In this document: piece after piece, positions 35,815 to 63,395 of the stretch
Position numbering within the stretch: position 1 is the stretch's first letter
How the letters are laid out: the number at the start of each line of letters is the position of its first letter
Origin: Rhodospirillaceae bacterium
Lineage (GTDB): Bacteria; Pseudomonadota; Alphaproteobacteria; SMXQ01
DNA: 64,000 nucleotides
Direction of reading: 5' to 3'
NCBI GenBank assembly: GCA_947474495.1
Contig: CANJIM010000001.1
Coordinates: 27,939 to 91,938, forward strand
The notes under the pieces: model-generated
What the model was told of the DNA's origin: nothing
The model's database searches: none
The model's input: only the letters and a program-made list of their open reading frames with translations
Translations under genes and position numbers: made by a program

Positions 35815-37914
35815 ATGGAAAGTTTCACTGCGGAAGCCGCCTTTATGGGCGCAGCTGCCGGCAAGGCGTTCCTGATCCTGATGGATCCGACGCGCCTGAT
35901 GTATTTAGGGATCGGGTGCGTGCTCGGCCTCGTGCTGGGCATTATTCCCGGCATCGGTGGCCTTGCGGGCACTGCGATGCTGCTGCCCTTCACCTTCGAT
36001 ATGGACCCGTTCACCGCTTTCGCGTTCCTGCTCGGCCTGGGCGCGACGACGGCCACGGGCGATCCAATTCCGGCGATTTTGTTCGGCGTGCCCGGAGGTG
36101 CAGCCTCCGCGGCAACCGTGCTTGACGGTTTCCCCATGGCCAAACGCGGCGAGGCCGGTCGAGCGCTCTCGGCCGCCTACATGTCCTCCCTGATGGGCGG
36201 CGTGTTCGGCGCCATGTTGATGGGCCTGACGATTCCGATCCTGCGGCCGCTGATGCTCTATATCGGCTCGCCGGAACTGCTCGGCTTCGCCGTGTTCGGT
36301 ATCTCGATGGTCGCGGTGTTGTCGGGTAACGCCCCGCTGCGCGGCATGGCCGCCGCCTGCTTCGGCATCATGCTCGCCATGATCGGTTCCGATCCGCAGA
36401 CCGGCACGCTGCGCTGGACCCTCGACAGCCTCTACCTGTGGGACGGCGCGCCGTTGACGCCGATCGTGCTCGGCCTGTTCGCCTTGCCCGAACTGTGCGA
36501 CCTGCTGATCACCCGCACCGCCATCGCCGAAGGCGTTCCTGTCGGCCGCGAGGTCTATCGCGGCCAGCTGCAAGGCGTGAAGGACTGCTTCCAGCATTGG
36601 TGGCTGATCATGCGCTGCTCGTGGATCGGCGGTGGCATCGGCTCGATCCCGGGCATCAGCGCCTCGGTGGTCGACTGGCTCGCTTACGGCCACGCCCTGA
36701 AGACTGAAAAGGGCGCCAAGGCGACCTTCGGCAAGGGCGACGTCCGCGGCGTTATCGCCTCGGAATCGTCGAACAACGCCAAGGAAGGCGGCGCGCTCAT
36801 CCCGACCGTCGCGTTCGGCGTGCCCGGCTCCGCCGGCATGGCCATCCTGCTCGGCGCCTTCCTGATCCAGGGTCTCGTCCCGGGTCCGGACATGCTGAGC
36901 AAGAACCTCGACGTGACCTACGCGATGGTCTGGTCGGTGGCGCTGGCCAACATCCTCGGCGCCGGCATGTGCTACGCCTTCAGCCCGCAGTTCGCCAAGC
37001 TGGCGACCCTGCGCTACACGCTGATCCTGCCCGCCGTTCTGGGCATCATCTACATCGGCGCGTTCGAAGCCTCTCGTCAGTGGGGCGACCTCTACACGCT
37101 GCTCTTCTTCGGCCTGTTCGGCTGGATCATGAAGCAGTTCAAGTGGCCGCGTCCGCCGTTGATTCTCGGCCTCGTGCTAGGCGATATCATCGAACGCTAC
37201 CTGTTCATCTCCGTCGAGCGTTACGGCCTCGAGTGGCTGAAACGCCCGGTGGTGGCGATCCTGTTCATCATGGCTATCGTCGGCCTGGTGCGACCGTTCC
37301 TGCAGGACGTGAAGGCCCAAGGCGGCGTCAAAATGATGCTGACCAACTTCCAGGCCCCGACGTTCCGCTGGACCCAGCTGTTCACGATCTTCTTCTTCAC
37401 CTTGATGGCCGTCATGGTCTTCCAGGCGACGAAGTGGAACATGGACGCCAAGATCGTGCCGCTGATCGTCGGCACGCTCGGTCTGTCGATGGTCGGACTC
37501 AGCCTGTTCAACGACATGTGCCGTGTGCCGAAGAGCAAGAAGGTCGCGAGCATCACGGAAAACACGTTGCATGAGATCGAGGAGAACTCGGACGAAAAGA
37601 TCCATATGGATCTGTCGTCCGACACCGATCATCTGTCGAAGAAGGTCATTGCCCAGCGCGGCATCCTCTTCTTCGCCTACATGCTCGGCTTCATGGGCTC
37701 CTTCGCCATGTTCGGCATGTTGCCGACGGTCTTCGTGTTCGTGATCTTCTTCATGCGCTTCGAAGCCAAGGAGCGTTGGACCCTGGTGATCCCCTACGCG
37801 ATCTTCATGGTCATCTTCATCTACGTCGGGTTCGACCAGTTTATGGCCGTGCCCTGGCCGCAAAGCGTGATCGGCCAATGGATCCCGGCGCTCAAGGTCA
37901 TCCCCACCCTCTAA
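35815..37914 (+). CDS. Tripartite tricarboxylate transporter permease TctA with a C-terminal TctB-like 4-TM extension (fusion)
   Basis: 699 aa. Residues 1-500 have the TctA pattern (GIIPGIGGLAGTAMLLPFTF, GVPGG repeats). The last about 190 aa have four TM helices and an acidic loop, like TctB. Confidence 0.7.
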   Translation: MESFTAEAAFMGAAAGKAFLILMDPTRLMYLGIGCVLGLVLGIIPGIGGLAGTAMLLPFTFDMDPFTAFAFLLGLGATTATGDPIPAILFGVPGGAASAATVLDGFPMAKRGEAGRALSAAYMSSLMGGVFGAMLMGLTIPILRPLMLYIGSPELLGFAVFGISMVAVLSGNAPLRGMAAACFGIMLAMIGSDPQTGTLRWTLDSLYLWDGAPLTPIVLGLFALPELCDLLITRTAIAEGVPVGREVYRGQLQGVKDCFQHWWLIMRCSWIGGGIGSIPGISASVVDWLAYGHALKTEKGAKATFGKGDVRGVIASESSNNAKEGGALIPTVAFGVPGSAGMAILLGAFLIQGLVPGPDMLSKNLDVTYAMVWSVALANILGAGMCYAFSPQFAKLATLRYTLILPAVLGIIYIGAFEASRQWGDLYTLLFFGLFGWIMKQFKWPRPPLILGLVLGDIIERYLFISVERYGLEWLKRPVVAILFIMAIVGLVRPFLQDVKAQGGVKMMLTNFQAPTFRWTQLFTIFFFTLMAVMVFQATKWNMDAKIVPLIVGTLGLSMVGLSLFNDMCRVPKSKKVASITENTLHEIEENSDEKIHMDLSSDTDHLSKKVIAQRGILFFAYMLGFMGSFAMFGMLPTVFVFVIFFMRFEAKERWTLVIPYAIFMVIFIYVGFDQFMAVPWPQSVIGQWIPALKVIPTL

Positions 37915-39031: not shown

Positions 39032-40453
39032 TTGATGGACGATAACAAGAAGCACGTCGCCTTCGGTGGCCGCCTGGTCATCATTGGGTTCGGCTCGATC
39101 GGCCAGGGCGTTCTGCCGCTGGTGCTGCGCCATATCGCCATGCCGCGCGAGAACATCGCGATCGTCACGGCGGAGGAGCGCGGCCGCGAGGTCGCCGCTG
39201 AGTACGGCGTGCGCTTCATCATCGACCCGCTGACGCGCGACAATTACCGCCAGATCCTGGCGCCGCTGCTGTCGGCTGGCGACTTCCTGCTCAATCTGTC
39301 GGTCGACGTCTCCTCCGTGGCGCTGATCGAATTCGCCCACGAGCGCGGCGCGCTTTATCTCGACACCTGCCTGGAACCCTGGGCCGGCGGCTATACCGAC
39401 GCCTCCCTGACGCCGTCGCAGCGTTCGAACTATGCGCTGCGTGAAACCGCGCTCGCGCTGATGCCGCGCTTTGCCGGCGGCGCGACCGCCGTGGTGACCC
39501 ATGGCGCGAACCCGGGCCTCGTCTCGCATTTCGTCAAGGAAGCCCTGCTGAACATCGCCCGCGATACGGGCCATAAGGTCCGCACGCCGCGCGACCGCGT
39601 GGGTTGGGCGCTGCTGGCGCGCGATCTCGACGTGAAGGTCATCCATATCGCCGAGCGCGACACCCAGGCGGCCGACCAGTCCAAGCAGCAGGACGAGTTC
39701 GTGAACACCTGGTCGATCGACGGCTTCGTCGGCGAGGGCCAGCAGCCGGCCGAGCTCGGCTGGGGCAGCCACGAGCTGCATTTCCCGATCGACGGCGGCC
39801 GCCACGACTTCGGCGGCGGCGCGGCGATCTATCTGAACCGGCCGGGCGCCGAGACCCGCGTGCGCACCTGGACGCCCCTGGAAGGCCCCTTCCACGGTTT
39901 CCTGGTGACCCATAGCGAAGCGATCTCGATCGCCGACTACTACTCACTGGTCGATAGCGGCACCGTCCACTACCGCCCGACCGTGCATTACGCCTACCAC
40001 CCCTGCGACGACGCGATCTTGTCGCTGCATGAGTTGGCCGGCAAGAACTGGGCCCTGCAGTCGAACAAGCGCCTCTTGATGGCGGATATCGCGCAGGGTA
40101 CCGACGAGCTTGGCGTGCTCCTGATGGGCCATGCCAAGGGCGCCTACTGGTACGGCTCGCGTCTGTCGATCGACGCGGCGCGCGAGCTCGTACCGCACAA
40201 CAACGCCACCAGCCTGCAGGTCACTGCTGCAGTGCTCGGCGGCATGATTTGGGCGATGGAAAATCCGCGCTCGGGTGTGGTCGAAGCCGACCAGCTCGAT
40301 CACAAGCGGGTCATGGACATCGCTCGTCCCTATCTCGGCGAACTGGTCGGCGAATACTCCGACTGGACCCCGCTCGAGGGCCGTACGCAGTTGTTCCCGG
40401 AGGAGCTCGATCCCTCCGATCCCTGGCAATTTAAAAATTTCCGCGTCGCCTGA
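39032..40453 (+). CDS. hss: Homospermidine synthase (bacterial type)
   Basis: 473 aa, N-terminal Rossmann LVIIGFGSIGQG, length and internal motifs (HGANPGLVSHF, WSIDGF) match bacterial HSS. Confidence 0.85.
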   Translation: MMDDNKKHVAFGGRLVIIGFGSIGQGVLPLVLRHIAMPRENIAIVTAEERGREVAAEYGVRFIIDPLTRDNYRQILAPLLSAGDFLLNLSVDVSSVALIEFAHERGALYLDTCLEPWAGGYTDASLTPSQRSNYALRETALALMPRFAGGATAVVTHGANPGLVSHFVKEALLNIARDTGHKVRTPRDRVGWALLARDLDVKVIHIAERDTQAADQSKQQDEFVNTWSIDGFVGEGQQPAELGWGSHELHFPIDGGRHDFGGGAAIYLNRPGAETRVRTWTPLEGPFHGFLVTHSEAISIADYYSLVDSGTVHYRPTVHYAYHPCDDAILSLHELAGKNWALQSNKRLLMADIAQGTDELGVLLMGHAKGAYWYGSRLSIDAARELVPHNNATSLQVTAAVLGGMIWAMENPRSGVVEADQLDHKRVMDIARPYLGELVGEYSDWTPLEGRTQLFPEELDPSDPWQFKNFRVA

Positions 40454-40486
40454 GACGCGAACGGAAATAGAAGGAGCTCCCCCGCT

Positions 40487-41614
40487 ATGACCAAGAAGAT
40501 CGACCGTTTCCTCGATGAGCGACGACCGGCCACTCCCTGCCTCGTGATGGACCTCGACGTGGTTGCGGACAATTACCGCAAGCTGCGCCGCGCCGTTCCC
40601 CGCGCCGGCATCTATTACGCCGTGAAGGCCAACCCGGCGCCGGAGATCTTGAAGCTCCTGGCGAAAGCCGGCTCGTCCTTCGACACGGCGAGCATCAACG
40701 AGATCGACATGGTCTTGGCCACTGGCGCCTCGGCTGACCGCATCTCGTTCGGCAATACGATCAAGAAGAAGACCGACATCGCCGCCGCTTATGGCCGCGG
40801 CGTGAAGCTCTACGCCTTCGACTCGGAAGCCGAGCTCGGCAAGATCTCCGACGCGGCCCCCGGCTCGCGCGTGTTCTGCCGCATCCTGACCTCCGGCGCC
40901 AACGCCGACTGGCCGCTGTCGCGCAAGTTCGGCTGCGACGTCGAGATGGCGCGCAAGCTGCTGATCGAAGCGGCCAAGCGCGATGTCATCCCCTATGGCG
41001 TGTCCTTCCACGTCGGTTCGCAGCAGCGCGACCCGAACCAGTGGGACGCCGCCGTGGCCCAGGCCGCTTGGCTGTTCCGCGAGTGCGAGCAGGCGGGCGT
41101 GCAGCTCTCCATGCTCAACATCGGCGGCGGCTTCCCGACGCGCTATCGCAAGACGGTGCCGGGCATGAGCAGCTATGGCGCCGCCATCGACGAATCGTTG
41201 AGCCGCCACTTCGGCAACCGGATCCCCGACATCATCGTCGAGCCGGGCCGTCAGATGGTCGGCAGCGCCGGCGTCATCCAGACCGAGGTCGTGCTGATCT
41301 CGAAGAAGGCCGACAACGACACCAAGCGTTGGGTCTATCTCGACATCGGCAAGTTCGGCGGCCTCGCCGAGACGATGGACGAAGCGATCCAGTACCCGAT
41401 CGTGTCGTCGCGCGACGGCGCGGTGTCGCCCGTCGTGCTGGCCGGCCCGACCTGCGACTCGGCCGACATTCTTTACGAAAAGGCCGACTACCGCCTGCCC
41501 GAGACCCTGGAGATCGGCGATAAGCTCGAAATCCGCTCGACCGGCGCCTACACGACGACCTACGCCTCGGTCGCCTTCAACGGCTTCGAACCGCTGAAGT
41601 GCTACTGCGTCTAA
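40487..41614 (+). CDS. odc: Ornithine (or Lys/Orn) decarboxylase, alanine-racemase-fold PLP enzyme
   Basis: 375 aa, PLP lysine context YAVKANP, GGGFP, EPGR and C-terminal CDSxD substrate-binding motif of eukaryote-type ODC/DapDC fold. Confidence 0.8.
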   Translation: MTKKIDRFLDERRPATPCLVMDLDVVADNYRKLRRAVPRAGIYYAVKANPAPEILKLLAKAGSSFDTASINEIDMVLATGASADRISFGNTIKKKTDIAAAYGRGVKLYAFDSEAELGKISDAAPGSRVFCRILTSGANADWPLSRKFGCDVEMARKLLIEAAKRDVIPYGVSFHVGSQQRDPNQWDAAVAQAAWLFRECEQAGVQLSMLNIGGGFPTRYRKTVPGMSSYGAAIDESLSRHFGNRIPDIIVEPGRQMVGSAGVIQTEVVLISKKADNDTKRWVYLDIGKFGGLAETMDEAIQYPIVSSRDGAVSPVVLAGPTCDSADILYEKADYRLPETLEIGDKLEIRSTGAYTTTYASVAFNGFEPLKCYCV

Positions 41615-46878: not shown

Positions 46879-47415
46879 ATGAAACGTCTTTTGATAGCGA
46901 CCGCCTTCCTGGCATTGGCACCGTTTGCCGCGCAGGCCCAATCGGCCAGCGACATCGTCGGCCCGCGCGAAGGCAGCCAGGAAATCACCCTGTCGGGCAC
47001 CGGCGGCAACAACAACGATTTTAACGCCGGCAGCTTCGGCATCAGCGGCAGCTACGGCTACTACTTCACGCCGGCCTTCGAAGGCGGCCTTCGCCAAACT
47101 CTGAGCTGGTCCGGCGGCGACAATACCGACGACAACTGGAGCGGCTCGACCCGCTTCTTCGTCGATTATCACTTCAATACGACCGGCAAGTTCAAGCCCT
47201 TCGTCGGCTTGAGCCTCGGCGGCACCTATGGCGACGGCGTTCCGGACACTGGCTTCGGCGGCCCTGAAGCCGGCATTAAGTATTATGTGAACGCGACGAC
47301 CTTCGTCCTCGCGCAGACGGAATATCAGTATTATTTCAACAGCGGGGATAGCGCCGCGAACAACTTTGACGACGGCGCCTTCGTCCACACCATCGGTCTC
47401 GGCTTCATTTTCTAA
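46879..47415 (+). CDS. Small outer-membrane beta-barrel protein (OmpW/OmpA-like 8-strand barrel family)
   Basis: Signal peptide MKRLLIATAFLALAPFAAQA, alternating aromatic/Gly beta-strand pattern, C-terminal Phe (GLGFIF). Confidence 0.75.
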   Translation: MKRLLIATAFLALAPFAAQAQSASDIVGPREGSQEITLSGTGGNNNDFNAGSFGISGSYGYYFTPAFEGGLRQTLSWSGGDNTDDNWSGSTRFFVDYHFNTTGKFKPFVGLSLGGTYGDGVPDTGFGGPEAGIKYYVNATTFVLAQTEYQYYFNSGDSAANNFDDGAFVHTIGLGFIF

Positions 47416-47432
47416 AGCCGACGTCGCGAACG

Positions 47433-47471
47433 AAAAAGGCCGGCTCCCCTCGGGCGCCGGCCTTTTTTTGA
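47433..47471. terminator. Bidirectional rho-independent terminator between convergent genes
   Basis: AAAAAGGCCGGCUCCCCUCGGGCGCCGGCCUUUUUUUG: GC-rich hairpin flanked by an A-run and a U-run. Confidence 0.85.
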
Positions 47472-47483
47472 TGTCGGGGAGGC

Positions 47484-47900
47484 TTACAACCCGAAGGCGC
47501 GCGCCAGGCGGCTGCCGATCAGGAGGGCCAGCACCGAAGCGAGACCGGTCAGCACCGCGCCCCACACCATGTCGGCGAGCGTGACGTTGAGCGACCAATT
47601 CCGCAATGTCGCCAGATTGGTCAGGTTGTAAGTGGCGTAGGCGCAGAGGCCGAACAAGGCGCCGCGCCACAGGGCGTCCTGCCATTGGCCGGATTTCAGG
47701 GCCGGCGCCAGAACCAGGCCGACCACGCCGACCGCGTAGATGACATAGAAGATTCCCGCCGGAACCGGGCGAAAGCCATCGGCCAGCAAACTGCCGAGTT
47801 CGGGCTTGTAGAGGCGGTTGACCATCGTCAGCAGCCAGACGGCATCGAGTCCGAGCAGCAGTAGCAGCACGAGCACATAGTGCAGAAGGTAGACGGCCAT
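47484..47900 (-). CDS. DUF2177-family membrane protein
   Basis: 138 aa, four TM helices, conserved DUF2177-like pattern. Confidence 0.6.
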   Translation of the reverse strand: MAVYLLHYVLVLLLLLGLDAVWLLTMVNRLYKPELGSLLADGFRPVPAGIFYVIYAVGVVGLVLAPALKSGQWQDALWRGALFGLCAYATYNLTNLATLRNWSLNVTLADMVWGAVLTGLASVLALLIGSRLARAFGL

Positions 47901-48486
47901 GACGCTCTCCTTTGCCGGACAATGGAACCGGATGGTGTGACGGCTAGCTTAGATCACCGGAACGACAAGGTGGGCGCCACGTTGACCTCGCGCGACCCCC
48001 GCCCGTCGCCCAGATCTCATCCCAGGGCCATGCGGCTTATACGGCGCGGCTCGCCAGGAGGATGCTTGAGAATGCCCACGAAAGATGCCCCGAGGACGCC
48101 CTCTAGGATATCGACCGGCTCGATAGCGGCCAAACGCCTGTCGGCACTGCATTTTGAGGACGATGTGAAAATCCAGCCCGCCGCCTTTGTCAGTGCCGCC
48201 GACAGCTTACGGAGGAAAATTCGAGCCTGCGCCGCGCGCAGCTTCGCGGCGCAGCATAGAACGGCCGACACAGCGGCTGGTCTGAAGGATGGTGGGGAGA
48301 AGTCCCAGGCGGGCCTGCTTTCGCGGCAGACCATCCGCCGGATCCTGCTGGATGCGCCGAGGGCCTAGAGCTTAAGCCCGAAGGGAAAAGGGGCCCCAGA
48401 TGGGCCGCGGCTCGGTTTGCCGCACGGCGCCCGCAGAGCGCCGCTCAATCGCAAGACATATTAGACACAAGACAGATCGGACACTG

Positions 48487-48515
48487 GCGGTCCCGGCGGC
48501 ATGCCGCCGGGACGC
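48487..48515 (-). terminator. Probable terminator downstream of the HU gene
   Basis: Perfect 11-bp stem GUCCCGGCGGC-aug-GCCGCCGGGAC followed by a U-rich tract on the minus transcript. Confidence 0.6.
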
Positions 48516-48538
48516 GCGCAGAACGTCCGCAGAAAGCC

Positions 48539-48850
48539 TTAGACGGCTTCCTTCAGCTCCTTAGCCGGGCGGAAGGCGACCTTCTTGCTCGCCTTGATCT
48601 TGATGGCTTCGCCGGTGGCCGGGTTGCGGCCCATGCGGGCGGCGCGCTTGCGGACCTGGAGGATACCCAGGCCGTTGAGGCGCAGACGGTTGCCCTTCTT
48701 CAGATGCTTGGTGACCATGGCGACAAAGCTGTCGAGGATCGCCGTGGAATCTTTCTTGGTCAGTTCATGAGCTTCCGCCAGTTCGGCAGCGAGCTGCTTG
48801 AGGGAAACGGTCGGCACCTTCACGGTGGCAGTCTTCGGGGTAGTCGCCAT
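48539..48850 (-). CDS. HU-family histone-like DNA-binding protein with about 15-aa N-terminal extension
   Basis: From MATTPKTATVKVPTVSLKQLAAELAE...GNRLRLNGLGILQVRKRAARMGRNPATGEAIKIKASKKVAFRPAKELKE. The HU/IHF arm motif (RNPxTGE) is present. Strong RBS GGAG. ORF-track start 48937 rejected. Confidence 0.85.
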   Translation of the reverse strand: MATTPKTATVKVPTVSLKQLAAELAEAHELTKKDSTAILDSFVAMVTKHLKKGNRLRLNGLGILQVRKRAARMGRNPATGEAIKIKASKKVAFRPAKELKEAV

Positions 48851-49233
48851 GGATAAATCTCCAAAGGGAGGAATAGAGAGCCGCAGAGAATCACAGACAA
48901 AAGGAGAAAACAAGCGTGGCGTAAGGCTTTTTTGCACTTATCCCCATTCTTCGCAAAAATGATGCGGCGCGGCGAAGCTGAGAATCGCCCGCCAAACGCC
49001 GCTTTTTGCGTCTTTTGATTCCCTGCGATCCTATCTCGCCCTTCGCTGCATGATGGATTAACCTAGGCGCCATCGAAGAAAAGCGGTCCTCAAGGCCGCT
49101 GTCGGAGGCTTTCATTCGCGACCCGCAAGACCGCCAGAACCGGCGGCGATCGGCACCAGGCCCGGATTTCAGGATCGCGATCCATGAGCCGGGACGCTGC
49201 CGAACGGGCCGCCCAACGCCTGGGAGAGAAGAT

Positions 49234-50310
49234 ATGCACTGCGTCGTCATCCGCCTGTTCGCCGCGTCGGGGCTCGCCCTCGCCGCCGCGCCCGCGTTCG
49301 CGCAAGATTCCGTGGCCGACTTCTACAAAGGCAAGACCGTCACCGTCATCAGCACGGGCAGCGTCGGCTCGATCTACGATCTCGGCTCGCGCCTGCTGCT
49401 GAAACATATGGCCAAGCATCTGCCGGGCAATCCGGACACCGTCGCCCAGGTGATGACTGGCGGCGGTCATATCGTCGGCACCAATCACCTCTACAACGTC
49501 GCGCCGCGCGACGGCACCACAGTCGGTGCCATCGGCGAAGCCACGCCGTTGCTTCAGGTACTCGAGCCGGACAAGGTGAAATACGATATCCGCAAGTTCA
49601 ACTGGCTGGGCAATCCGGTACTCAACACGCTCACCGTGGTCTCTTGGCACACCACCGGCATCACCGACATCCAGCAGGTGAAGCAGCAGGAGCTGATCAT
49701 CGGCACTGGCGGTCCGGCCTCGCCCTCGACGCTCTATCCGCGCATCCTCAACAGCATCGCCGGCATGAAGTTCAAGATCGTCTCGAGCTACCCCGGGGCG
49801 GAAATCGACCTCGCCATGGAGCGCGGCGAGGTCAACGGCCGCGGCGGCGCCCTGTGGTCCTGGTGGCAGACCAGCAAGCCCCATTGGCTCGCCGAAAAGA
49901 AGATCAACGTCCTGCTGCAGGTCGGCCTGCGCCGCCATCCCGACCTGCCGAACGTGCCGCTGCTGACCGAACTGGCCACCACCCCGGCAGAGAAGCAGAT
50001 CTACGCCTTGTTCTCTTCGACCGTGCTGGTCGGCCGGCCGCTGATCGCGCCGCCGGACGTGCCGGCCGACCGCGTCGCGGCCCTGCGCGCCGCCTTCGAC
50101 GCCACCATGAAGGACGCGACCTACCTGGCCGAAGCCAAGAAGATGAACCTCGACATCGACCCCGTTTCGGGCGCCGAACTGCAACAGGCGATGACAGATC
50201 TCGCCGCCACGCCGCCCGACGTCATCGAATTGGCCAAGGCGGCGCAGACCAAGGGCGCGATCTTCAATTGCAAGGAAATCGCCAAGAATCCGCAAATCTG
50301 CGAAAACTGA
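49234..50310 (+). CDS. TctC/Bug-family periplasmic tricarboxylate-type solute-binding protein
   Basis: Signal peptide, SVGSIYDL..R / GGGHIVG / APRDG motifs comparable to the TctC GGGFDL / PGGVG pattern. Paralogue of 62304-63395. Confidence 0.65.
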   Translation: MHCVVIRLFAASGLALAAAPAFAQDSVADFYKGKTVTVISTGSVGSIYDLGSRLLLKHMAKHLPGNPDTVAQVMTGGGHIVGTNHLYNVAPRDGTTVGAIGEATPLLQVLEPDKVKYDIRKFNWLGNPVLNTLTVVSWHTTGITDIQQVKQQELIIGTGGPASPSTLYPRILNSIAGMKFKIVSSYPGAEIDLAMERGEVNGRGGALWSWWQTSKPHWLAEKKINVLLQVGLRRHPDLPNVPLLTELATTPAEKQIYALFSSTVLVGRPLIAPPDVPADRVAALRAAFDATMKDATYLAEAKKMNLDIDPVSGAELQQAMTDLAATPPDVIELAKAAQTKGAIFNCKEIAKNPQICEN

Positions 50311-50342
50311 GCACCCATCCGCGTCACAACGAGAAGCGAGAC

Positions 50343-51335
50343 ATGAACAAGAAAGTCAGCCTGACCGTCGCCACATCGGATTACGACCATGTGCGCGATT
50401 TCCGATTGGGGACGGTTCAGGCCGAAGGCATCGAGCCCACTTGGCTGACGATGGACATTCACGAGATTTTCTCGCGCTTCACGTTCCATCGCGAGTGGGA
50501 TATTTCCGAACTGTCCTTCGCCAAATTCGTCGCGCAAGTGACCAAGCCCGATTCCGACATCATCGGCCTGCCGGTTTACATGTCGCGCATGTTCCGCTTT
50601 TCGTCGTTTTACGTGAACCGCAAGTCGGGCATCAAAACCGCCAAGGATTTGCGCGGCAAGAAAATCGGCGTGCCGGAATGGGCCCAAACGGCGGCGGTCT
50701 ACACCCGCGGCTGGCTGCAGCATGACGTCGGCATCCCACTCACCGAGATCGACTGGTACCAGGCCGGCACCCACGACAAGGGCCGCATCGAGAAGGTCGA
50801 CCTCACCCTGCCGCCCGGCCTGCGCCTGACGCGCGTGATGGACAAGACGCTGAGCGACATGATCGAGACCGGCGAACTCGACTGCGTGATGATCGCGCGG
50901 CCGCCGCGCCCCTTCACCCGCAAGCATCCCGACGTCGTCCGCTTATTCCCCGACTATCGCGGCGTCGAGGAAGACTATTTCAAGACGACCGGCGTCTATC
51001 CGATCATGCACGGTATCGCCGTGAAGAAGAGCCTGCTCGCGCAGCATCCGTGGATCGCGCGCAATATGTTCACCGCTTTCGAGCAGGCGAAGAACAACAG
51101 CCTCGAACGGCTGCTTGAGAACAGCATCTCGGTCTATCCACTGCCCTGGGTCACCGACCACGCCGAGAAGATGCGTGAGATGTTCAAAGGCGACTTCTTC
51201 CCCTACGGCATCGAAGCCAACCGCCCGACCCTCGAGATGTTCCTGCAATATTGCTTTGAACAGGGCATCGCCACGCGCCACGCCAAGCCGGAGGAGATTT
51301 TCGCCCCCGGTTGCGAGGTTTCCGTTCAAGTTTAA
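50343..51335 (+). CDS. 4,5-dihydroxyphthalate-decarboxylase-like protein (cytoplasmic NMT1/THI5/SsuA-fold family)
   Basis: 330 aa, no signal peptide. LTVATSDYDHVRDF...ELSFAKF...KGKKIGVPEW...FPIMHGIAVKKSL pattern resembles PhtD-type decarboxylases. Confidence 0.6.
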   Translation: MNKKVSLTVATSDYDHVRDFRLGTVQAEGIEPTWLTMDIHEIFSRFTFHREWDISELSFAKFVAQVTKPDSDIIGLPVYMSRMFRFSSFYVNRKSGIKTAKDLRGKKIGVPEWAQTAAVYTRGWLQHDVGIPLTEIDWYQAGTHDKGRIEKVDLTLPPGLRLTRVMDKTLSDMIETGELDCVMIARPPRPFTRKHPDVVRLFPDYRGVEEDYFKTTGVYPIMHGIAVKKSLLAQHPWIARNMFTAFEQAKNNSLERLLENSISVYPLPWVTDHAEKMREMFKGDFFPYGIEANRPTLEMFLQYCFEQGIATRHAKPEEIFAPGCEVSVQV

Positions 51336-51391
51336 CCATCATAGTTGCAACAAGAGCGTGATCCGCACGCCATCAATTTCCGGGAGAAATC

Positions 51392-52585
51392 ATGAGCACG
51401 ACCGCCAAAACCGGCAACATGCAGCAGCTCGCCGCCGACAAGAAATTCCTCGTTGATCCCTATCTCGATTGGGCCAACGGCGAAGGCATTCCGATCCACG
51501 AAGATTTCGGCTTTGACCTGCTGGCGCTGGAAACCGCGCCGTGGGACCGCTATGAGGCGCGCGGCTGCTTCGCCCATGCCATAGGCCGCGGCGATTTCAT
51601 GTCTTGTTACGTGCTGGAAATTCCCGCCGGCGGCAAGACGCGGCCGGTCAAGCATCTCTACGAAGCGTTCTTCTTCACGCTGTCGGGCCATGGCTCGACG
51701 GTGGTATGGACGCCGGACGGCCAGAAGCGCACCTTCGAATGGGGCCCCAAGGCCGTCTTCGCTATTCCGCTCAACTGCACCTATCAGATCTTCAACGGCT
51801 CGGGCCGCGAGCCGGCGCGCGTCTCTTGCACCAACGACGCGCCGCTGACGATCAACCTCTATCACAACCTGAAGTTCGTCTTCGAAAACGACTTCACGTT
51901 TGAAGAGCGTTCCGGCGATTCGAAGCATTTCGACGGCGAGGGCAATTTCATTCCGGTCAAGCCGGGCTCACATATGTGGGAAACCAACTTCGTGCCCGAC
52001 CTGACCAACTTCAAGCTCGAGGAGTTGGAGGACCGCGGGAAGGGCTCGCGCAACATCGCTTTCATTCTCGCCGAAGGCACCATGCACGCCCATAGCTCGG
52101 AAATCCCGACCGGGCGCTACAAGAAGGCTCATCGTCACGCCGCTGGCACCCATGTCCATGCCGTCACCGGCGAAGGCTATTCGCTGCTGTGGTACGAAGG
52201 CGATTCCGAGTTCAAGGAAATCCCCTGGCGTCACGGCATCATGTACGTGCCGCCGTTCTGGATGCTGCATCAGCATTTCAATACCTGCCCGGAGCCGGCG
52301 CGCTATCTCGCCTGTAGCCTGGGCAGCCGGCGCTATCCCTTCATCGCCCTGCGCCGACGCGGCGCCGAGGGCGCGGCCCAGACCTCCATGAGCAAGGGCG
52401 GCCGCCAGATCGACTACGAGGAACAGGATCCGCGCATCCATCACAAGTGGCTGCAGGAGATGGACAAGAACGGCGTCGCCTCCGACATGAGCGACGTGTT
52501 CGACGAGCCCGCGATCCGCGCCCTGAAGCCCGAGCAACTGACCGGCGTCATCCGCACCCCGGTGGCCACCAACCCAAACGAATAA
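51392..52585 (+). CDS. Bicupin protein, probable ring-cleavage dioxygenase of the gentisate/salicylate 1,2-dioxygenase family
   Basis: 397 aa, two cupin modules, His-rich metal motif AHRHAAGTHVHAV in the second cupin, first cupin with H..E pattern. Confidence 0.55.
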   Translation: MSTTAKTGNMQQLAADKKFLVDPYLDWANGEGIPIHEDFGFDLLALETAPWDRYEARGCFAHAIGRGDFMSCYVLEIPAGGKTRPVKHLYEAFFFTLSGHGSTVVWTPDGQKRTFEWGPKAVFAIPLNCTYQIFNGSGREPARVSCTNDAPLTINLYHNLKFVFENDFTFEERSGDSKHFDGEGNFIPVKPGSHMWETNFVPDLTNFKLEELEDRGKGSRNIAFILAEGTMHAHSSEIPTGRYKKAHRHAAGTHVHAVTGEGYSLLWYEGDSEFKEIPWRHGIMYVPPFWMLHQHFNTCPEPARYLACSLGSRRYPFIALRRRGAEGAAQTSMSKGGRQIDYEEQDPRIHHKWLQEMDKNGVASDMSDVFDEPAIRALKPEQLTGVIRTPVATNPNE

Positions 52586-52647
52586 GCTTGCGCGCAAAGC
52601 AAAAGGGCCGGCATTTGCCGGCCCTTTTTCGTTCGAGCCTCGGGAAT

Positions 52648-53793
52648 TCAGCCCCAGACGAGACGCGCCGTTTCCGCCAGGACGGAAAGTTTGCGCCGCT
52701 GGTCATCCTCGCTCACCTTGTTGCCGACGATGTCGGAGGCAAAGCCGCATTGCGGGCTGATGGCGATCTGCTCGAGCGGCACGTATTTCGTCGCCTCGTC
52801 GATCCGGCGGCGCAGGCCGTCGACCGTCTCCATTTCGGGCGTCTTGGTGCTGACCAGGCCAAGCACCACCGTCTTGCCTTTCGGCAGGAAGCGCAACGGC
52901 TCAAAGCTGCCGGCACGCGGCGTATCGTATTCCAGCAAGATGCGGTTATGCGGCAATTCGTTGAGCAGTCGTTCGGCGATGCCGTCGTACTTGCCCTCGC
53001 GGTGCCACATGCTGTGCTGGTTGCCACGGCAGAGATGGATGCCGAAGGTGACGCCGGGGAAACCCGAGACGACGCGCGCCTCAGCCTTCAGCGAGCGCGA
53101 GAAACTCTCCATCGGATCCTCGCCGCGCTGCTTCATCTCATAGAGACTCGGCTCATCGACATAGGCGGTGAAGCCCGGGGCGTCGATATGCACATACTTG
53201 CAGCCGGCGCCGACGAGGCCCTGGATGATCTCCCGCTCGATCGTGATCACATCATCGAGGAAACTATCCATCGTCGGATAGACTGACGACGAGTTCTTGT
53301 AATCGAAGCGCTGCGAGATGCGATCCGGGCCGATCAGTGTCACCTTCGCGGGTGTCTTGGTCTCCTGCGAAACGAAGCGATATTCCTCGAGCGGAATATT
53401 GCGCTTGAGGCTGAGCGGTTTGACCACCGGGCGGCGGTGGGACACCGCCGTGCCGGCTTTGGCCAAATCGGGAATTTCCCAGCGCTGGTTGCCCTTGCTG
53501 CCCTCGACCCGCTTCTCATAGGCCTTCATGCTGCCTTGAGTTGCGTCATAGCCCTCGACCGCGCCGCCAAAGCTGTCTTGAAAGTTGAGGCGGCGCTGTT
53601 CGCCATCGGTCAGCACGGCGAGGCCGGCCTCTTCCTGCATGCGCACGGACTGGCGCACGGCCTTGTCCTCGATCGCGCGAAACTCCACTGCCGGCAGCTT
53701 GCCGTCGTCAAAGGCTTTGCGCGCCTCCTTGAGAAAGGCCGGACGCAGCAGGCTACCGATCACATCAGTGCGGATGCTGTTCAAATCGCTCAT
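52648..53793 (-). CDS. Cobalamin-independent methionine synthase II family protein (MetE C-terminal catalytic-domain homologue, stand-alone)
   Basis: 381 aa. The Zn-binding His/Cys/Glu residue context of the MetE C-terminal barrel is present (IHLCRGN, ISPQCGF). Confidence 0.75.
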   Translation of the reverse strand: MSDLNSIRTDVIGSLLRPAFLKEARKAFDDGKLPAVEFRAIEDKAVRQSVRMQEEAGLAVLTDGEQRRLNFQDSFGGAVEGYDATQGSMKAYEKRVEGSKGNQRWEIPDLAKAGTAVSHRRPVVKPLSLKRNIPLEEYRFVSQETKTPAKVTLIGPDRISQRFDYKNSSSVYPTMDSFLDDVITIEREIIQGLVGAGCKYVHIDAPGFTAYVDEPSLYEMKQRGEDPMESFSRSLKAEARVVSGFPGVTFGIHLCRGNQHSMWHREGKYDGIAERLLNELPHNRILLEYDTPRAGSFEPLRFLPKGKTVVLGLVSTKTPEMETVDGLRRRIDEATKYVPLEQIAISPQCGFASDIVGNKVSEDDQRRKLSVLAETARLVWG

Positions 53794-54010
53794 GGCACGC
53801 TCCCTGATCTTTTCTTATGCCACCATTTTAAGGACGCTGGCCCGCCAGGCCAGACCAATTTGGCGCCCCTATTTTCAGCTGGCCATTTTTAGGTGAGATG
53901 GAGCACATCCGTGCGTATGATGCGGATGGGAGACGAGAACGCGCCGCACCCAAACGGCCGCCACAGACTTCCGAGAAATGAAACACCCGACCTGACGGAT
54001 CGCCCATCGC

Positions 54011-55234
54011 ATGGCCGTGACGCATCCTCTTCTGCGCGTTTGGACTCACCGCAACTACGCCTATTACATCGGCGGCATGACGCCCAATCTCATCACCTTA
54101 TGGATGCAGCGCGTCGGCCTCGGCTGGCTCGCCTGGGAGTTGACCGAATCGACGCTTTGGCTCGGCGTGATCGCTGCCGCCGATCTGGCGCCCATGCTGG
54201 TGCTGGCGCCTTTCGCCGGCGTGGCGGTCGATCGCGGCAACCCGCTGCGCATCCAGCGCATCGCCACCGCGCTCGAAGTCCTGCAGGCGATCGCGCTCGG
54301 CATCTTCACCCTGTTGGGCATGATGCCGATTGAACTGTTGTTCGCACTGTCGCTGATGCTCGGCTGCATCCATCCTTATGCGACGGCAGCGCGCCACGCC
54401 ACCGTGCCCTCGCTTGTCCCGCGCGACATATATGCGACGGCTGTGGCGATGGATTCGGCCCTCTTCAATGCCTCGCGCTTTTTGGGGCCGGCCCTGGCAG
54501 GTCTCGTGATTTCGTTCGCCGGCGCCGGCGGCACGTTCATCGTCAATGCGGTCGGCTGCTCGATCTTTCTCTGGGGGCTCTTTCAAGTCGATATCGTGGC
54601 GCCTACCCGTAGCAAAGAGCGGCGCAGCGTGTGGATCGACGTCAAGGTGAGCACGACTTACATCAGTGAGCATGCCGGCATTGCCGTGTTGTTCCTGCTG
54701 CTCACGGTCATTTCAACTTTCGCGCGACCGCTGCAGGACATGCTGCCCGGCTTTTCAGGCCAAGTGCTCGACAAAGGCGCCATTGGCCTCGCCTGGCTCA
54801 CCTCCAGCATGGGCATCGGCGCCATGGGCGCCGCCATCTGGATCGCATCGCGCGGCCGTATCGCCGGCCTGACTGCGAATGTCGTGCTCGGCTGCCTCGG
54901 CCTCGCCCTATCGATCGCCGGCTTCGTCGCCACCGACAATCTCTATGTGGCAAGCGCCTTCTGCGCGCTGTGCGGCTTCACCATGAACAGCATGTCGACC
55001 AGTGTGCAGACACTGGTGCAATCCACCGTCGGGGATGACATGCGCGGACGCGTGATGTCGTTTTACGCCCTGATCTATCGCGGCACGCCGGCGATCGGCG
55101 CGCTGTTGGTCGGCGCTTTGTCCGACAGCTTGGGTCTACGCTGGGCCTTTGCCGGCGTCGCCGCGATCTGCCTGCTCGCCTGGTTTCTCGTTCTTGGCAA
55201 ACGCCGGACGATGACGGCGGCGCTCGAAAGCTAA
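54011..55234 (+). CDS. MFS transporter (EntS/YbdA-like exporter family)
   Basis: 407 aa, 12 TM helices, MFS_3-like motif pattern. Confidence 0.8.
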   Translation: MAVTHPLLRVWTHRNYAYYIGGMTPNLITLWMQRVGLGWLAWELTESTLWLGVIAAADLAPMLVLAPFAGVAVDRGNPLRIQRIATALEVLQAIALGIFTLLGMMPIELLFALSLMLGCIHPYATAARHATVPSLVPRDIYATAVAMDSALFNASRFLGPALAGLVISFAGAGGTFIVNAVGCSIFLWGLFQVDIVAPTRSKERRSVWIDVKVSTTYISEHAGIAVLFLLLTVISTFARPLQDMLPGFSGQVLDKGAIGLAWLTSSMGIGAMGAAIWIASRGRIAGLTANVVLGCLGLALSIAGFVATDNLYVASAFCALCGFTMNSMSTSVQTLVQSTVGDDMRGRVMSFYALIYRGTPAIGALLVGALSDSLGLRWAFAGVAAICLLAWFLVLGKRRTMTAALES

Positions 55235-55548
55235 GCCGCAGGCGGCGAAGCTTCGGGCTTTTGCGCCGGTGGCGCATGGCGGCGGCGGATCATGCGCGAG
55301 AGATACCAGGCCGCACCCGCCGGCGCGCCGAACACGACGACGAACACCATCAGTTCGACGAGCAAACTGATGCCATGCGCCAAGAAGCCGTAGGCGCCGT
55401 TCAGCACCGTCGCCACCAGCCAGAACCAGATGAACAGGCGGCCGCCGTCGATGAAGCCGGCGCCGCGCGACTTGTTGGCGAAATGCGCGGTAATCAGGAA
55501 CAGCAGCATGGCCGCCATGCCGGATGCGACGAGAATCAGAGTGTGCAT
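55231..55548 (-). CDS. Small hypothetical membrane protein (3 TM)
   Basis: 105 aa from MHTLILVASGMAAMLLFLI, RBS GGAGAG. ORF-track start 55629 is less likely. Confidence 0.45.
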   Translation of the reverse strand: MHTLILVASGMAAMLLFLITAHFANKSRGAGFIDGGRLFIWFWLVATVLNGAYGFLAHGISLLVELMVFVVVFGAPAGAAWYLSRMIRRRHAPPAQKPEASPPAA

Positions 55549-55751
55549 GGTCTCTCCAAAAGCGCGCCATTCAATGAGCTGTTGTGCCCACCGGGCAAGC
55601 GCCTGGCGAGCGCCGCACCCTAACGGCAAAAAACAGGGTAGAGCGAGTCGTCAGGCTGCCCCGTAAGCCTGGGAGATCCAATCGTCCCCCATTCCTGGCA
55701 GTTTATGGGGAACTTGCCATCAGCGCCAGAAAGCCATCGCCTATAAAGCGA

Positions 55752-55967
55752 TCAGGTCTTGGGCTTCGCCATCGGCTGTTGAGGGCGCTTCGATTTGCCA
55801 GCCGCGATGGTCGCCGGCGTGCCCGACGTTTCCGGGGCCTCACCGCTACGCGCGCCATAGGCTTCACGCAACGGCGCGCGCCCTAACGGTTGCGACGGAC
55901 TCGTCTCGATGCCGCCTTTGTCGACATTGCGTGGCTGTTTGAGCGACGATTTGCGCGACGTTGTCAT
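55752..55967 (-). CDS. Hypothetical small basic protein
   Basis: 71 aa MTTSRKSSLKQPRNVDKGG..., RBS GGGAGA 7 nt upstream. No family recognised. Confidence 0.35.
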   Translation of the reverse strand: MTTSRKSSLKQPRNVDKGGIETSPSQPLGRAPLREAYGARSGEAPETSGTPATIAAGKSKRPQQPMAKPKT

Positions 55968-56107
55968 GCGATTCTCCCAACCGTTTGTCCGAAGGCAACG
56001 ATGTGGCACGAGAGCCGTTCCCGTTCGTTAAGGCCTTGTAACGCAAGAGCTTAGGACTCCGACGACGCGAGCCTTAGAAAAGCCCTTTATATCTGCGATA
56101 ATGAAAC

Positions 56108-57163
56108 ATGCGCACGGACACATTCGATCACCGCAATGAACAGGACGGGACCGGCTCTGTCACGCGGCCGGCGCAAAGCGCCTATGGCGAATTCGCGCAA
56201 GCCATGCCGGCCGTGCGGGCCGGGCAGATTGCCTCATCCTTCGGTGGATTCATCGCCACTTGCGCCGTGATGTATGTCCTCGCGGATTACTCAGCTTGGC
56301 TTGCCATCGCGCTCGCGCCGCTGGCCGCCGGCTTTCTCGTCCGCATCTTTATCATTCAGCATGATTGCGGCCATGGCGCCTTCTTTCGAACCCGGCGCAG
56401 CAACGATATCCTCGGGATCATTTGCAGCCTGGTCACGCTGGCGCCTTACGCCGCATGGAAACGTCAGCATGCCGGCCATCACGGCGTGTGGAACAATTTA
56501 GATCAGCGTCAGAGCGGCCTCGATATCTATTCATCCTGCCTGACCGTCGCCGAGTACCGCGCCCTGACGCCTGGCGCCCAGTGGCGGCATCGCTTGATCC
56601 GCCACCCTCTCGTCGCCAATCTTTTGCTGCCGCCGATCGTTTTCCTGCTGCTCTATCGCTTTCCGTTCGACGCGCCGCGCAGCTGGCGCCGAGAAAAAAT
56701 CGCCGTTTATCTGACCGATCTCGCCTTGCTCGCTATCATAGTCGGGCTGGGCCTCGCAGTGGGGTTCGACCGCGTTCTCATTGTGCAATTGCCGGTCATG
56801 GTCTGCGCCGCCATCATCGGCGTCTGGCTGTTCTCGGTTCAGCACCGCTTCGAAAACACCTCTTGGTTGCGCGCCGACGAATGGACAGCCGAGCAAGCCG
56901 CGTTGCGCGGCTCCTCCTATCTCCGCTTGCCCAACATTCTGCGCTGGTTCACCGGCAACATCGGATTTCATCACATCCATCACCTGAACCCGCGCATTCC
57001 CAATTACCGCCTGGCGGCCTGCCAGAAGGCCAATCCGGATCTTCACGACACACCGACCCTGTCCTTCACCGATGCGCTGCGCGCCTGGCGTTACAGCCTA
57101 TGGGATGAAGAGCAGCACCGGATGGTCTCGTTCGCCAGTGCCCATGGACGAGCGGCGCCATGA
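56108..57163 (+). CDS. Membrane fatty-acid desaturase family protein
   Basis: His boxes HDCGH, HAGHHG(VWNN) and FHHIHHLNP, multiple TM helices. Start uncertain (possibly a downstream Met). Confidence 0.85.
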   Translation: MRTDTFDHRNEQDGTGSVTRPAQSAYGEFAQAMPAVRAGQIASSFGGFIATCAVMYVLADYSAWLAIALAPLAAGFLVRIFIIQHDCGHGAFFRTRRSNDILGIICSLVTLAPYAAWKRQHAGHHGVWNNLDQRQSGLDIYSSCLTVAEYRALTPGAQWRHRLIRHPLVANLLLPPIVFLLLYRFPFDAPRSWRREKIAVYLTDLALLAIIVGLGLAVGFDRVLIVQLPVMVCAAIIGVWLFSVQHRFENTSWLRADEWTAEQAALRGSSYLRLPNILRWFTGNIGFHHIHHLNPRIPNYRLAACQKANPDLHDTPTLSFTDALRAWRYSLWDEEQHRMVSFASAHGRAAP

Positions 57164-62130: not shown

Positions 62131-62303
62131 GGGGCCTGTTTTACACCGGCATCCACAGGAGCGCACGGCGTTCTATCGGCTTTTGAAATAACCCATAAAT
62201 TCGTTCTGCACTGTGCATAACGGTCCTTCGCAGACAGCTCATGGCATATCGCTTGCTAGGTCCTTTGCAAGACTCCCGCCCCTGCAAGCAAAGGATGACA
62301 ACC

Positions 62304-63395
62304 ATGCATAAGATTTCGCGCAGGCCGCTGGCACTGCCCGCTTCGCAGGCCCCATTTGCCCGTTCCGCGTGCCGCGTCCTGGTCGTTTTGTCTTTCGGAA
62401 TGGCCGCCGCTTTCACTGCCAAGCCCGCCGCCGCGCAAAGCGTCGAGGGCTTCTACAAGGGCAAAACCGTGACCGCCATCGTCGGCTCCGGCGTCGGCGG
62501 CGGCTATGACGCCGTCATGCGCCTGCTGTCGCGCCACATCACGCGGCATATCCCCGGCGAGCCAAAGATCGTCGTGCAGAACATGCCGGCCGCCAGCGGC
62601 ATCGCCGCGCTCAATCACGTCTACAACATTGCACCGCGCGACGGCTCGGTGATCTCGGGCGCCGCCAATACCATGCCGTTCGACCCGCTATTCGGCGGCC
62701 CGGCGGCGAAGTTCGACGTGTTCAAGCTCAACTGGCTCGGCAGCCTCGCCAAGCAGACCAACGTCTGTCTCGTCTGGGGCGCGACGCCGTTAAAGACGCT
62801 GGCCGACGTGCAGCAACAAAAGATGCGCGTCTCGGCGACCGGGGCGACCGGCTGGCGCTCCTTCCTGCCCAACCTGATCAACGGCGTCGCCGGCACGAAA
62901 TTCGAAGTCATCAACGGCTATGAATCGGCGGCCTCCATGCTCGCCGTCGAGCGCGGCGAGGTCGACGGCCTGTGCGCCGACTACGCCACCGTCAAGTCGA
63001 CGCAGAACGACTGGGTCGAGCAGAAGAAGATCGTTGTGCTCGCCCAGTTCGGCCTGACGCCGCTGGCCGGCCTGGAGCATGTGCCGATGGGCCTCGACAG
63101 CATCGCCGATCCGGCGGACCACCGCGCCGTCGAGCTGTTCATGATGCAGCAGGAATGGGGACGTCCCTTCGTTATGCCGCCCGAGGTGCCGGCCGACCGG
63201 CTGGCCGCCATGCGCGCCGCCTTCGACGCCACGATGAAGGACCCGGCCTTCCTCGCCGAAGCCGAAAAGCTGCGCATCGATATCGATCCCATGACCGGCG
63301 CCGAGATGGACAAGATGTTCAAGGAGGCCTACGCCACGCCGCCCGAAGTGGTCGAGCGCACAAAGGTGCTGTTGAAGCGCGCCGGCGCGATTTAA
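62304..63395 (+). CDS. TctC/Bug-family periplasmic solute-binding protein (paralogue of 49234-50310)
   Basis: Signal peptide ending AAAQS, VGSGVGGGYDAVMR, PAASGIAALN, APRDGSVI and C-terminal IDIDPMTGAE motifs shared with the first copy. Confidence 0.65.
   Translation: MHKISRRPLALPASQAPFARSACRVLVVLSFGMAAAFTAKPAAAQSVEGFYKGKTVTAIVGSGVGGGYDAVMRLLSRHITRHIPGEPKIVVQNMPAASGIAALNHVYNIAPRDGSVISGAANTMPFDPLFGGPAAKFDVFKLNWLGSLAKQTNVCLVWGATPLKTLADVQQQKMRVSATGATGWRSFLPNLINGVAGTKFEVINGYESAASMLAVERGEVDGLCADYATVKSTQNDWVEQKKIVVLAQFGLTPLAGLEHVPMGLDSIADPADHRAVELFMMQQEWGRPFVMPPEVPADRLAAMRAAFDATMKDPAFLAEAEKLRIDIDPMTGAEMDKMFKEAYATPPEVVERTKVLLKRAGAI

Follow-up and report, generated by a model that had tools for sequence, protein, structure and literature searches.

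Soil Proteobacteria possess many binding proteins of tripartite tricarboxylate transporters (TTT), a family that includes Bug and TctC proteins, and ligands are known for few of them. In the terephthalate system, the binding protein TphC is reportedly encoded beside the degrading enzymes, and the locus described here resembles that arrangement at the level of the system. The locus occupies positions 49234–53793 of a 64-kb stretch of contig CANJIM010000001.1 from a Rhodospirillaceae bacterium (the whole stretch is referred to as the window). It consists of three co-directional genes (the trio), encoding a Bug-type binding protein, a relative of the 4,5-dihydroxyphthalate decarboxylase PhtD and a bicupin, and of a convergent gene encoding a MetE-like protein:

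49234..50310, + strand: gene for a Bug/TctC-type periplasmic solute-binding protein, 358 aa, with a signal peptide
50343..51335, + strand: gene for a PhtD-family cytoplasmic protein, 330 aa
51392..52585, + strand: gene for a bicupin metalloenzyme of a family without a name, 397 aa
52601..52629, no strand assigned: hairpin with a 12-bp stem, GC core GGGCCGGC/GCCGGCCC, an A-run on one side and a T-run on the other
52648..53793, − strand: gene for a stand-alone MetE-type (Meth_synt_2) Zn barrel protein, 381 aa, convergent to the trio

The reading we favour, tentatively and with somewhat less than even confidence, is that the locus contains a TTT-dependent catabolic operon for a carboxylate, possibly a hydroxy-aromatic one. 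The secreted Bug-type protein would capture the carboxylate in the periplasm and pass it to a TctA-TctB permease, probably a fused one encoded 11 kb upstream. In the cytoplasm, the PhtD-family protein would carry out a cofactor-free decarboxylation like that of 4,5-dihydroxyphthalate decarboxylase, and the bicupin would oxidise the product via a histidine-ligated metal in its C-terminal barrel, likely Fe(II), most plausibly by oxygenolytic cleavage. The PhtD-like gene may be an accessory, inserted between the Bug-type and bicupin genes in the clade of the window, where it probably widens entry to the pathway, and the MetE-like protein, whose gene is transcribed separately, may have its substrates among imported compounds of the same class.

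All four open reading frames (ORFs) are real genes, because each protein has many close homologues (hundreds to thousands, at 60–99% identity) and gene callers place identical proteins at the same coordinates on independent contigs and assemblies; they lie where the original prediction, made from the letters of the window, had put them. The window is 98% identical to a metagenome-assembled genome (MAG) labelled ‘Rhizobium sp. Q54’. The start codon of the PhtD-like gene is the ATG at 50343, not 50344, and the gaps within the trio, first given as 33 and 57 nt, are indeed short and measure 32 and 56 nt by strict count. A Shine-Dalgarno-like sequence stands ahead of each trio gene (GGGAGAGAAG before the ATG of the Bug-like gene), and a strong hairpin is seen only 3′ of the third gene, where the convergent stop codons are 62 nt apart. 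This hairpin (ΔG −26.9 kcal/mol, z −4.06, with none of 200 shuffles folding equally well) is likely a bidirectional intrinsic terminator that serves both convergent genes. A consensus promoter and terminator scan was not used, because its counts matched those of shuffled sequence and it did not list this obvious hairpin. The layout is thus operon-like, which counts for the favoured reading, and we infer that the three genes are co-transcribed. Directly upstream of the trio, and divergent from it, lies the gene for an HU-family DNA-binding protein (48539–48937, − strand); its longest ORF has 132 aa, of which the N-terminal extension is doubtful because gene callers give 103 aa.

The layout also bears on an alternative explanation, which we consider rather unlikely: that these are neighbours with unrelated jobs, gathered by rearrangement in one lineage, with a common function limited to the Bug-type protein and the bicupin. 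The PhtD-like protein would then have a housekeeping or other role, and the MetE-like protein would be a methionine-related paralogue. The position of the MetE-like gene, convergent and behind the terminator, is in keeping with this explanation, whereas three co-directional genes with very short gaps and no terminator between them argue against it.

The occurrence of the bicupin in other genomes was surveyed by a pattern scan with two strict peptide patterns and one genome per species, which found at least 270 carriers among 185,579 species genomes; the best 80 loci were analysed. Neighbourhoods were described by tblastn with the window proteins and by our own clustering of ORFs, with greedy ORF calls and a Pfam label taken from one representative per cluster. 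Carriers include cultured Rhizobium, Sinorhizobium/Ensifer and Phyllobacterium, some Betaproteobacteria and a Gemmatimonas MAG. The order of Bug, PhtD-like, bicupin, convergent MetE-like and MFS genes was found only in five close species (loci L007–L011) and in matching metagenome contigs; at the other 75 loci the bicupin is ~70% identical and the neighbours vary. The following families occur near the bicupin:

Bug1-type binding protein: 42/80 loci
TctA: 22/80 loci
EutA-family ATPase (PF06277, 354 bits), directly downstream of the bicupin: 22/80 loci
Amdase-like protein: 11/80 loci
HIBADH-like reductase: 11/80 loci
MetE-like protein: 10/80 loci
Amidohydro_2 protein: 10/80 loci
PhtD-like protein: 9/80 loci
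FAD_binding_3 hydroxylase: 6/80 loci
VOC protein: 6/80 loci
Thiamine pyrophosphate (TPP) enzyme: 4/80 loci
FAA hydrolase: 3/80 loci

The conserved core is the Bug-type binding protein with the bicupin. Outside the clade of the window, the two are found together at 39 of 75 loci, and genes of the Bug1 and Bug2 subfamilies number 53 in 920 kb around bicupins compared with 2 in 562 kb around PhtD-like orthologues, a difference of ~16-fold. With this co-conservation and the fused permease gene upstream, the earlier proposal of a binding-protein-dependent catabolic unit is a reasonable one. Conservation of the complete trio is uninformative on function, because the whole neighbourhood is syntenic in the five close species.

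The Bug-like protein has a signal-peptide-like N-terminus, MHCVVIRLFAASGLALAAAPAFA up to the boundary before QD, as read from the sequence. On its own it gives no Pfam, NCBIfam or PDB sequence match, so its placement needs a family profile; that of 23 subfamily members (A3) matches 11 Bug/TctC structures with E values of 4e-13 to 3e-22, including BugD (2f5x), BugE (2dvz), the terephthalate-binding 8hk9 and 7ndr, Bug27 and AdpC. By this profile, the protein can be assigned to a divergent, long subfamily of TTT binding proteins of ~335–360 aa. A second member of the Bug1 subfamily (Bug2), 40% identical to the first, is encoded at 62241–63395 (+ strand) and does score above the Pfam TctC cut-off (29.3 against 27 bits). 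As noticed at the outset, it stands beside an α/β hydrolase gene (63457–64000, + strand; Abhydrolase_1, 64.8 bits), which starts 61 nt after it and runs off the end of the window.

The membrane component of a TTT system is encoded in the same window:

35815..37914, + strand: gene for a fused TctA-TctB membrane permease, 699 aa, 11 kb upstream of the trio

Pfam recognises TctA in residues 28–451 (414 bits) and TctB in residues 524–682 (41.6 bits), the gene is also called on the source contig, and the protein is 39% identical (tblastn) to TctA adjoining the bicupin in other genomes. No TctC gene adjoins it. Both orphan Bug-type proteins, encoded at 49234 and 62241, probably share the fused protein as their membrane partner, and the Bug-like protein thus combines homology to Bug/TctC proteins with an export signal and a TctA/TctB partner in the genome, as a TTT binding protein would.

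The bicupin belongs to a family of more than 3000 clusters that is ~70% identical across Alphaproteobacteria, Betaproteobacteria and Gemmatimonadota, is annotated as ‘hypothetical protein’ in RefSeq, and has no name and no model above threshold. The window protein falls below the Pfam Cupin_2 cut-off, and its only NCBIfam match is 5-aminosalicylate 1,2-dioxygenase, at 30.5 bits against a cut-off of 650. Searches of the PDB with phmmer and with a profile match gentisate dioxygenase 3bu7 (E 2.5e-4 and 1.3e-3, respectively), in the C-terminal barrel only. The closest solved folds, the top three structural matches, are gentisate and salicylate 1,2-dioxygenases, at 13–19% identity. A literature search found nothing, within the library covered, on this family, on EutA with a cupin and TctC, or on a bicupin with a TTT system.

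In gentisate and salicylate dioxygenases (3bu7 and 2phd) the catalytic barrel is reportedly the N-terminal one. The N-terminal barrel of the window protein (PVKH88LY90E91 and CTY131QIFN) contains no HxH, Y131 replaces the motif-2 histidine and H88 is the sole canonical ligand kept. The C-terminal barrel holds an invariant histidine cluster (H247-R-H249, H254, H256, H293 and H295), its AHRHAAG...WMLHQHFN resembles AHRH...WTWHEHCN of 3bu7, and the protein has a C-terminal extension of ~90 residues. The HRH...H motif reported earlier is therefore present and its ligands hold up in alignment, though in the C-terminal cupin. The predicted metal site comprises H247, H249, H254/H256 and H293/H295, and the extra invariant H254 and H256 suggest a four-His rather than a three-His site. 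The superfamily assignments made for the four proteins at the outset hold, and membership of the bicupin among gentisate dioxygenases does not: its fold is nearest to solved members of the gentisate/salicylate class, and it differs from that class in its scores against curated cut-offs, in the N-terminal three-His Fe(II) site and in its pathway neighbours.

Neighbours of an aromatic flavour (Amidohydro_2, FAD_binding_3, FAA hydrolase, VOC, Amdase and Aldolase_II) are found in 28 of 75 bicupin loci. These neighbours, the chemistry of the only characterised PhtD relative and the resemblance of the bicupin to dioxygenases in motif and fold make a di- or polycarboxylate with a hydroxylated aromatic or hetero-aromatic ring our best guess at the substrate. 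Other partners are consistent with a different role, in which the bicupin does not cleave rings and is an isomerase, decarboxylase, hydrolase or aliphatic C–C oxygenase acting on an oxo or sugar acid, the window then holding a reduced TPP/HIBADH/EutA system. The frequency of EutA-family, HIBADH-like and TPP genes listed above points in this direction, as do the predicted four-His-type site, against the three-His site of dioxygenases, and an operon on the Phyllobacterium zundukense plasmid NZ_CP104971.1 (L095 2990–12753), annotated as TctA-TctB-TctC-TPP enzyme-oxidoreductase-bicupin (‘hypothetical protein’)-EutA-LysR. We nevertheless regard it as unlikely, given that gentisate and salicylate dioxygenases provide both the leading structural matches and the only sequence match, that families typical of aromatic catabolism adjoin about a third of the loci, and that no TPP enzyme, HIBADH-like or EutA gene is near the bicupin of the window.

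In L095 and in 21 loci among L012–L086, the EutA-family ATPase, similar to the reactivase of ethanolamine ammonia-lyase, directly follows the bicupin. No ethanolamine ammonia-lyase or other B12 enzyme is found near these pairs; genes for TctABC, a PRK08327-type TPP enzyme and an HIBADH-like reductase often stand before them. The Gemmatimonas MAG contig JBLNCI010000033.1 (L065 745–10906) carries five tandem bicupins, 45–71% identical to that of the window, together with a Bug1-type gene, a EutA-family gene and, at the end of the cluster, a 54% identical PhtD-like gene, all of them co-directional.

The PhtD-like protein aligns over residues 4–323 with the solved 4,5-dihydroxyphthalate decarboxylase 9jp7 (E 4.7e-68, 35% identity over 319 aligned residues), and its matches to NMT1, Phosphonate-bd and SsuA are weak. 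Of the invariant positions of its orthogroup, 114 can be aligned to 9jp7; 64 of them (56%) are identical there and 50 differ, many of these being charged or aromatic and including H16>R, R21>Y, H40>E, R50>Q, H127>A and R240>S. The protein has no signal peptide, and its start agrees with orthologues of 327–333 aa. A periplasmic form made from another start was considered and rejected: a longer ORF could begin only at the TTG at 49644, where it would overlap the Bug gene in another reading frame, and the extension is Arg/His-rich junk with no signal peptide. The cytoplasmic location proposed earlier thus survives the check on alternative starts. From its sequence, the protein appears to be a cytoplasmic PhtD-family member with a periplasmic-binding-protein-like fold and a specificity that probably differs from that of 4,5-dihydroxyphthalate decarboxylase, and by analogy it is a candidate cofactor-free decarboxylase. 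A literature search brought up no account of the 9jp7 active site. The 61–70% identical orthologues beside gshB are labelled ‘4,5-dihydroxyphthalate decarboxylase’ by JGI despite a context unrelated to phthalate.

In its most specific form, the phthalate/gentisate-like unit of the original prediction would take up phthalate or hydroxyphthalate, decarboxylate it with a true PhtD and cleave the ring in the manner of gentisate or protocatechuate with a genuine dioxygenase of the gentisate family. The full-length match to 9jp7, the gentisate dioxygenases as the closest solved folds of the bicupin and the binding of terephthalate by the related proteins 8hk9 and 7ndr are all in line with it, and we still judge it very improbable. 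Too many of the invariant positions compared with 9jp7 differ and the overall identity is too low; the bicupin lies far under every dioxygenase equivalog cut-off, with its catalytic motif in the other barrel. Moreover, PhtD yields protocatechuate, which to our knowledge falls outside the substrate classes of bicupin dioxygenases. Among the genes called in the 64 kb there is no Rieske/phthalate 4,5-dioxygenase, reductase, cis-dihydrodiol dehydrogenase or fumarylpyruvate-type (FAH) hydrolase, and no phthalate 4,5-dioxygenase, reductase or cis-dihydrodiol dehydrogenase was seen in the Pfam-labelled loci of close orthologues. Neither a maleylpyruvate isomerase nor a fumarylpyruvate hydrolase gene adjoins the trio; a GST-family gene that lies ~35 kb upstream might, going by Pfam labels, encode a maleylpyruvate isomerase. 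A canonical phthalate or gentisate pathway was accordingly rejected, the genes for the Rieske oxygenase, reductase, dihydrodiol dehydrogenase and FAH-type hydrolase not being found among the called genes of the source contig across the window.

Seen from the side of the PhtD-like protein, the link to the bicupin is loose and recurrent, not tight. In 80 metagenome loci with its closest relatives (61–99% identity), one belongs to the clade of the window and contains the bicupin; the 79 others, carrying 61–70% orthologues, were examined with a fixed query set and clustering of a subset, and contain the bicupin in none. The earlier view of the trio as one co-conserved pathway fails on this count. 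At L087 (6063–8962), L089, L090 and ~40 of L097–L175, the 3′ end of gshB (glutathione synthetase) overlaps the PhtD-like orthologue, and some loci have TctC and a class II aldolase upstream. The PhtD-like protein accompanies the bicupin only in the clade of the window and in a few loose cases. Scattered co-occurrence is nonetheless seen: at L091/L092 a Bug1-type gene directly precedes a 70% PhtD-like orthologue and overlaps it by 4 nt, in a locus that also encodes a TPP enzyme and a bicupin paralogue of 32% identity, and the cluster of L065 ends in a PhtD-like gene.

These data cut both ways for the explanation by unrelated jobs. The absence of the bicupin from the 79 loci, the association with gshB (40 loci) and with a convergent NMT1-type protein (43 loci), and the restriction of the trio to one fully syntenic clade are what it would lead one to expect. 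Against it, adjacency of Bug-type and PhtD-like genes recurs in other lineages (L170 and L118 as well as L091/L092, with the overlap in L091), and PhtD-like homologues lie in or near bicupin clusters not only in L065 but also within 3–8 kb of the bicupins of L038, L061, L072 and L095.

The MetE-like protein scores 57.6 bits with PF01717 (cut-off 21) and remains under every NCBIfam cut-off (251.7 against 313 bits for NF005085, PRK06520; 54.9 against 929.95 for TIGR01371). Its closest solved structure is 1ypx, a Listeria structural-genomics protein (E 1.4e-52). The Zn ligands IH253LC255, E288 and C349 are conserved in both MetE-like subfamilies that adjoin the bicupin, and the protein, with only 381 aa, has no N-terminal folate-binding half, in agreement with its first description as a Zn barrel lacking that half. 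It therefore has the Zn barrel of MetE and neither the folate domain, a score above the equivalog cut-off nor a methionine-type riboswitch. An Rfam scan of 47000–56500 gave chance-level matches only, none at the gathering score, and no SAM (S-adenosylmethionine) or B12 riboswitch, which is negative evidence only; with nothing beyond such matches upstream, the idea of a regulated methionine gene was set aside. A reading in terms of thiol dioxygenases and sulfur metabolism, prompted by the MetE neighbour and a paper on Advenella (PMC5373536), was likewise abandoned, as no supporting evidence was found.

Orthologues of the MetE-like protein at 70–72% identity lie in three unrelated contexts (flagellar, LigB/RraA and aldolase), which speaks for a collection of unrelated neighbours. 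A second MetE-like subfamily, with 35–39% identity and the same Zn ligands, is convergent directly after the bicupin in the clade of L023, L036, L043, L049 and L053, where the other neighbours of the bicupin differ from those in the window. The bicupin is followed by a MetE-like gene in two clades, each with a different subfamily, and this argues against unrelated neighbours; the recurrent adjacency is suggestive of a functional link and lends some weight to the otherwise speculative role of the protein as a methyltransferase of the pathway. On the Gemmatimonas MAG contig JBLNCI010000009.1 (L176 5279–8262), a class II aldolase (Aldolase_II), a MetE-like protein (71%) and a Bug1-like binding protein are encoded together, and at L178 (2866–7146) and in the L023/L049 clade (L049 8229–10498) the gene for a phosphoenolpyruvate (PEP)-mutase/isocitrate-lyase-family enzyme lies upstream of the MetE-like gene.

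Several observations weigh against the TTT-dependent catabolic operon that we favour. The full trio is confined to the fully syntenic clade, and the operon has neither a regulator nor downstream pathway genes. The similarity of the bicupin to gentisate and salicylate dioxygenases is marginal (E ~1e-3) and extends to one barrel; in a weak alignment, V255 takes the place of the Arg of ALRF in 3bu7, which we take to be a substrate-binding residue of that class. In many genomes the partners of the bicupin, namely a TPP enzyme, an HIBADH-like reductase and a EutA-type ATPase, are atypical of ring cleavage. About 40 of the 79 PhtD-like orthologue loci have gshB upstream with a 4-nt overlap and 43 have the convergent NMT1-type binding protein, a housekeeping-looking context.

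A further reading, to which we give little credence, is that the bicupin represents a new enzyme class, a multi-His metal enzyme of the C-terminal barrel whose EutA and MetE-type partners would indicate a chemistry new to cupins. The enzyme might be an oxygenase with ATP-driven reactivation, or the cleavage of a compound imported by TTT might be coupled to methyl transfer such as O- or S-demethylation; the window would then show the methyltransferase-linked version of the system. In this respect, the association with EutA, the MetE-type neighbours and the inversion of the active barrel count as leads, not results.

The gene next to the MetE-like gene on its other side encodes a transporter:

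54011..55234, + strand: gene for an MFS_3 (EntS-like) transporter, Pfam 118.5 bits, divergent from the MetE-like gene

It is syntenic in L007–L011 and L096, and a 33–35% homologue is found near the bicupin in L032, L054, L070 and L076; its link to the unit is uncertain. The remaining window is ordinary chromosome, with genes for ribonucleotide reductase, DNA polymerase IV, an oligopeptide ABC transporter, sugar-nucleotide and polyamine functions and AsmA. About 8 kb upstream of the trio (39032–41614, + strand) is a polyamine-type pair, saccharopine-dehydrogenase-like and Orn/DAP-decarboxylase-like, and at L091 (12194–14990) the same pair adjoins a Bug1 homologue of 57% identity, perhaps a remnant of synteny shared by the two organisms.

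If the favoured reading is true, it offers the first functional handle on a widespread, strongly conserved and unnamed bicupin family, and one on the divergent Bug-type subfamily that travels with it. A defined pair of ligand and enzyme would aid the annotation of carboxylate turnover, possibly that of aromatic acids, in soil and freshwater metagenomes. The labels propagated to the PhtD-like orthogroup in a phthalate-unrelated genomic context are a warning to annotators. The unit itself is unsurprising in kind, and the main interest lies mostly outside the window, in the EutA-type ATPase, the MetE-type neighbours and the substrate.

Compared with described systems, each component combines shared and distinct features. 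The bicupin has a fold like that of the class III dioxygenases (3bu7 and 2d40, gentisate; 2phd, salicylate) and differs from them in the opposite location of the motif barrel, in its set of histidines and in its extension. With PhtD/Pht5/OphC (9jp7), the PhtD-like protein has in common its full-length homology, similar length, lack of a signal peptide and the core elements DYD, SRxFRxxSxY, PE and PIMH. Unlike PhtD, its orthogroup never adjoins phthalate dioxygenase genes, and its members are found beside gshB, beside TctC and a class II aldolase, or beside a Bug-type gene and a TPP enzyme.

The MetE-like protein resembles the core methionine synthases (MesA-D; PMC7857596) and 1ypx in having only the C-terminal Zn/homocysteine barrel with H-x-C, E and C ligands, a likeness of architecture rather than of compared sequences, and the NCBIfam scan listed no model named for MesA-D. 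Unlike the core methionine synthases, it has no corrinoid protein, MesX or riboswitch nearby, and its partners elsewhere are PEP-mutase/isocitrate-lyase-family enzymes, class II aldolase and Bug-type binding proteins.

The window Bug protein is longer than the known TTT binding proteins (BugD, BugE, Bug27, TphC/TBP and AdpC) and so divergent that the Pfam TctC model cannot place the single sequence, while it shares with them the signal peptide and the GGxxD loop (G45 and D49). As in other TTT systems, an orphan binding-protein gene stands beside catabolic enzymes with TctA/TctB encoded elsewhere, and on the reading we favour the unit would work in the same way as binding-protein-linked aromatic-acid operons such as the terephthalate system.

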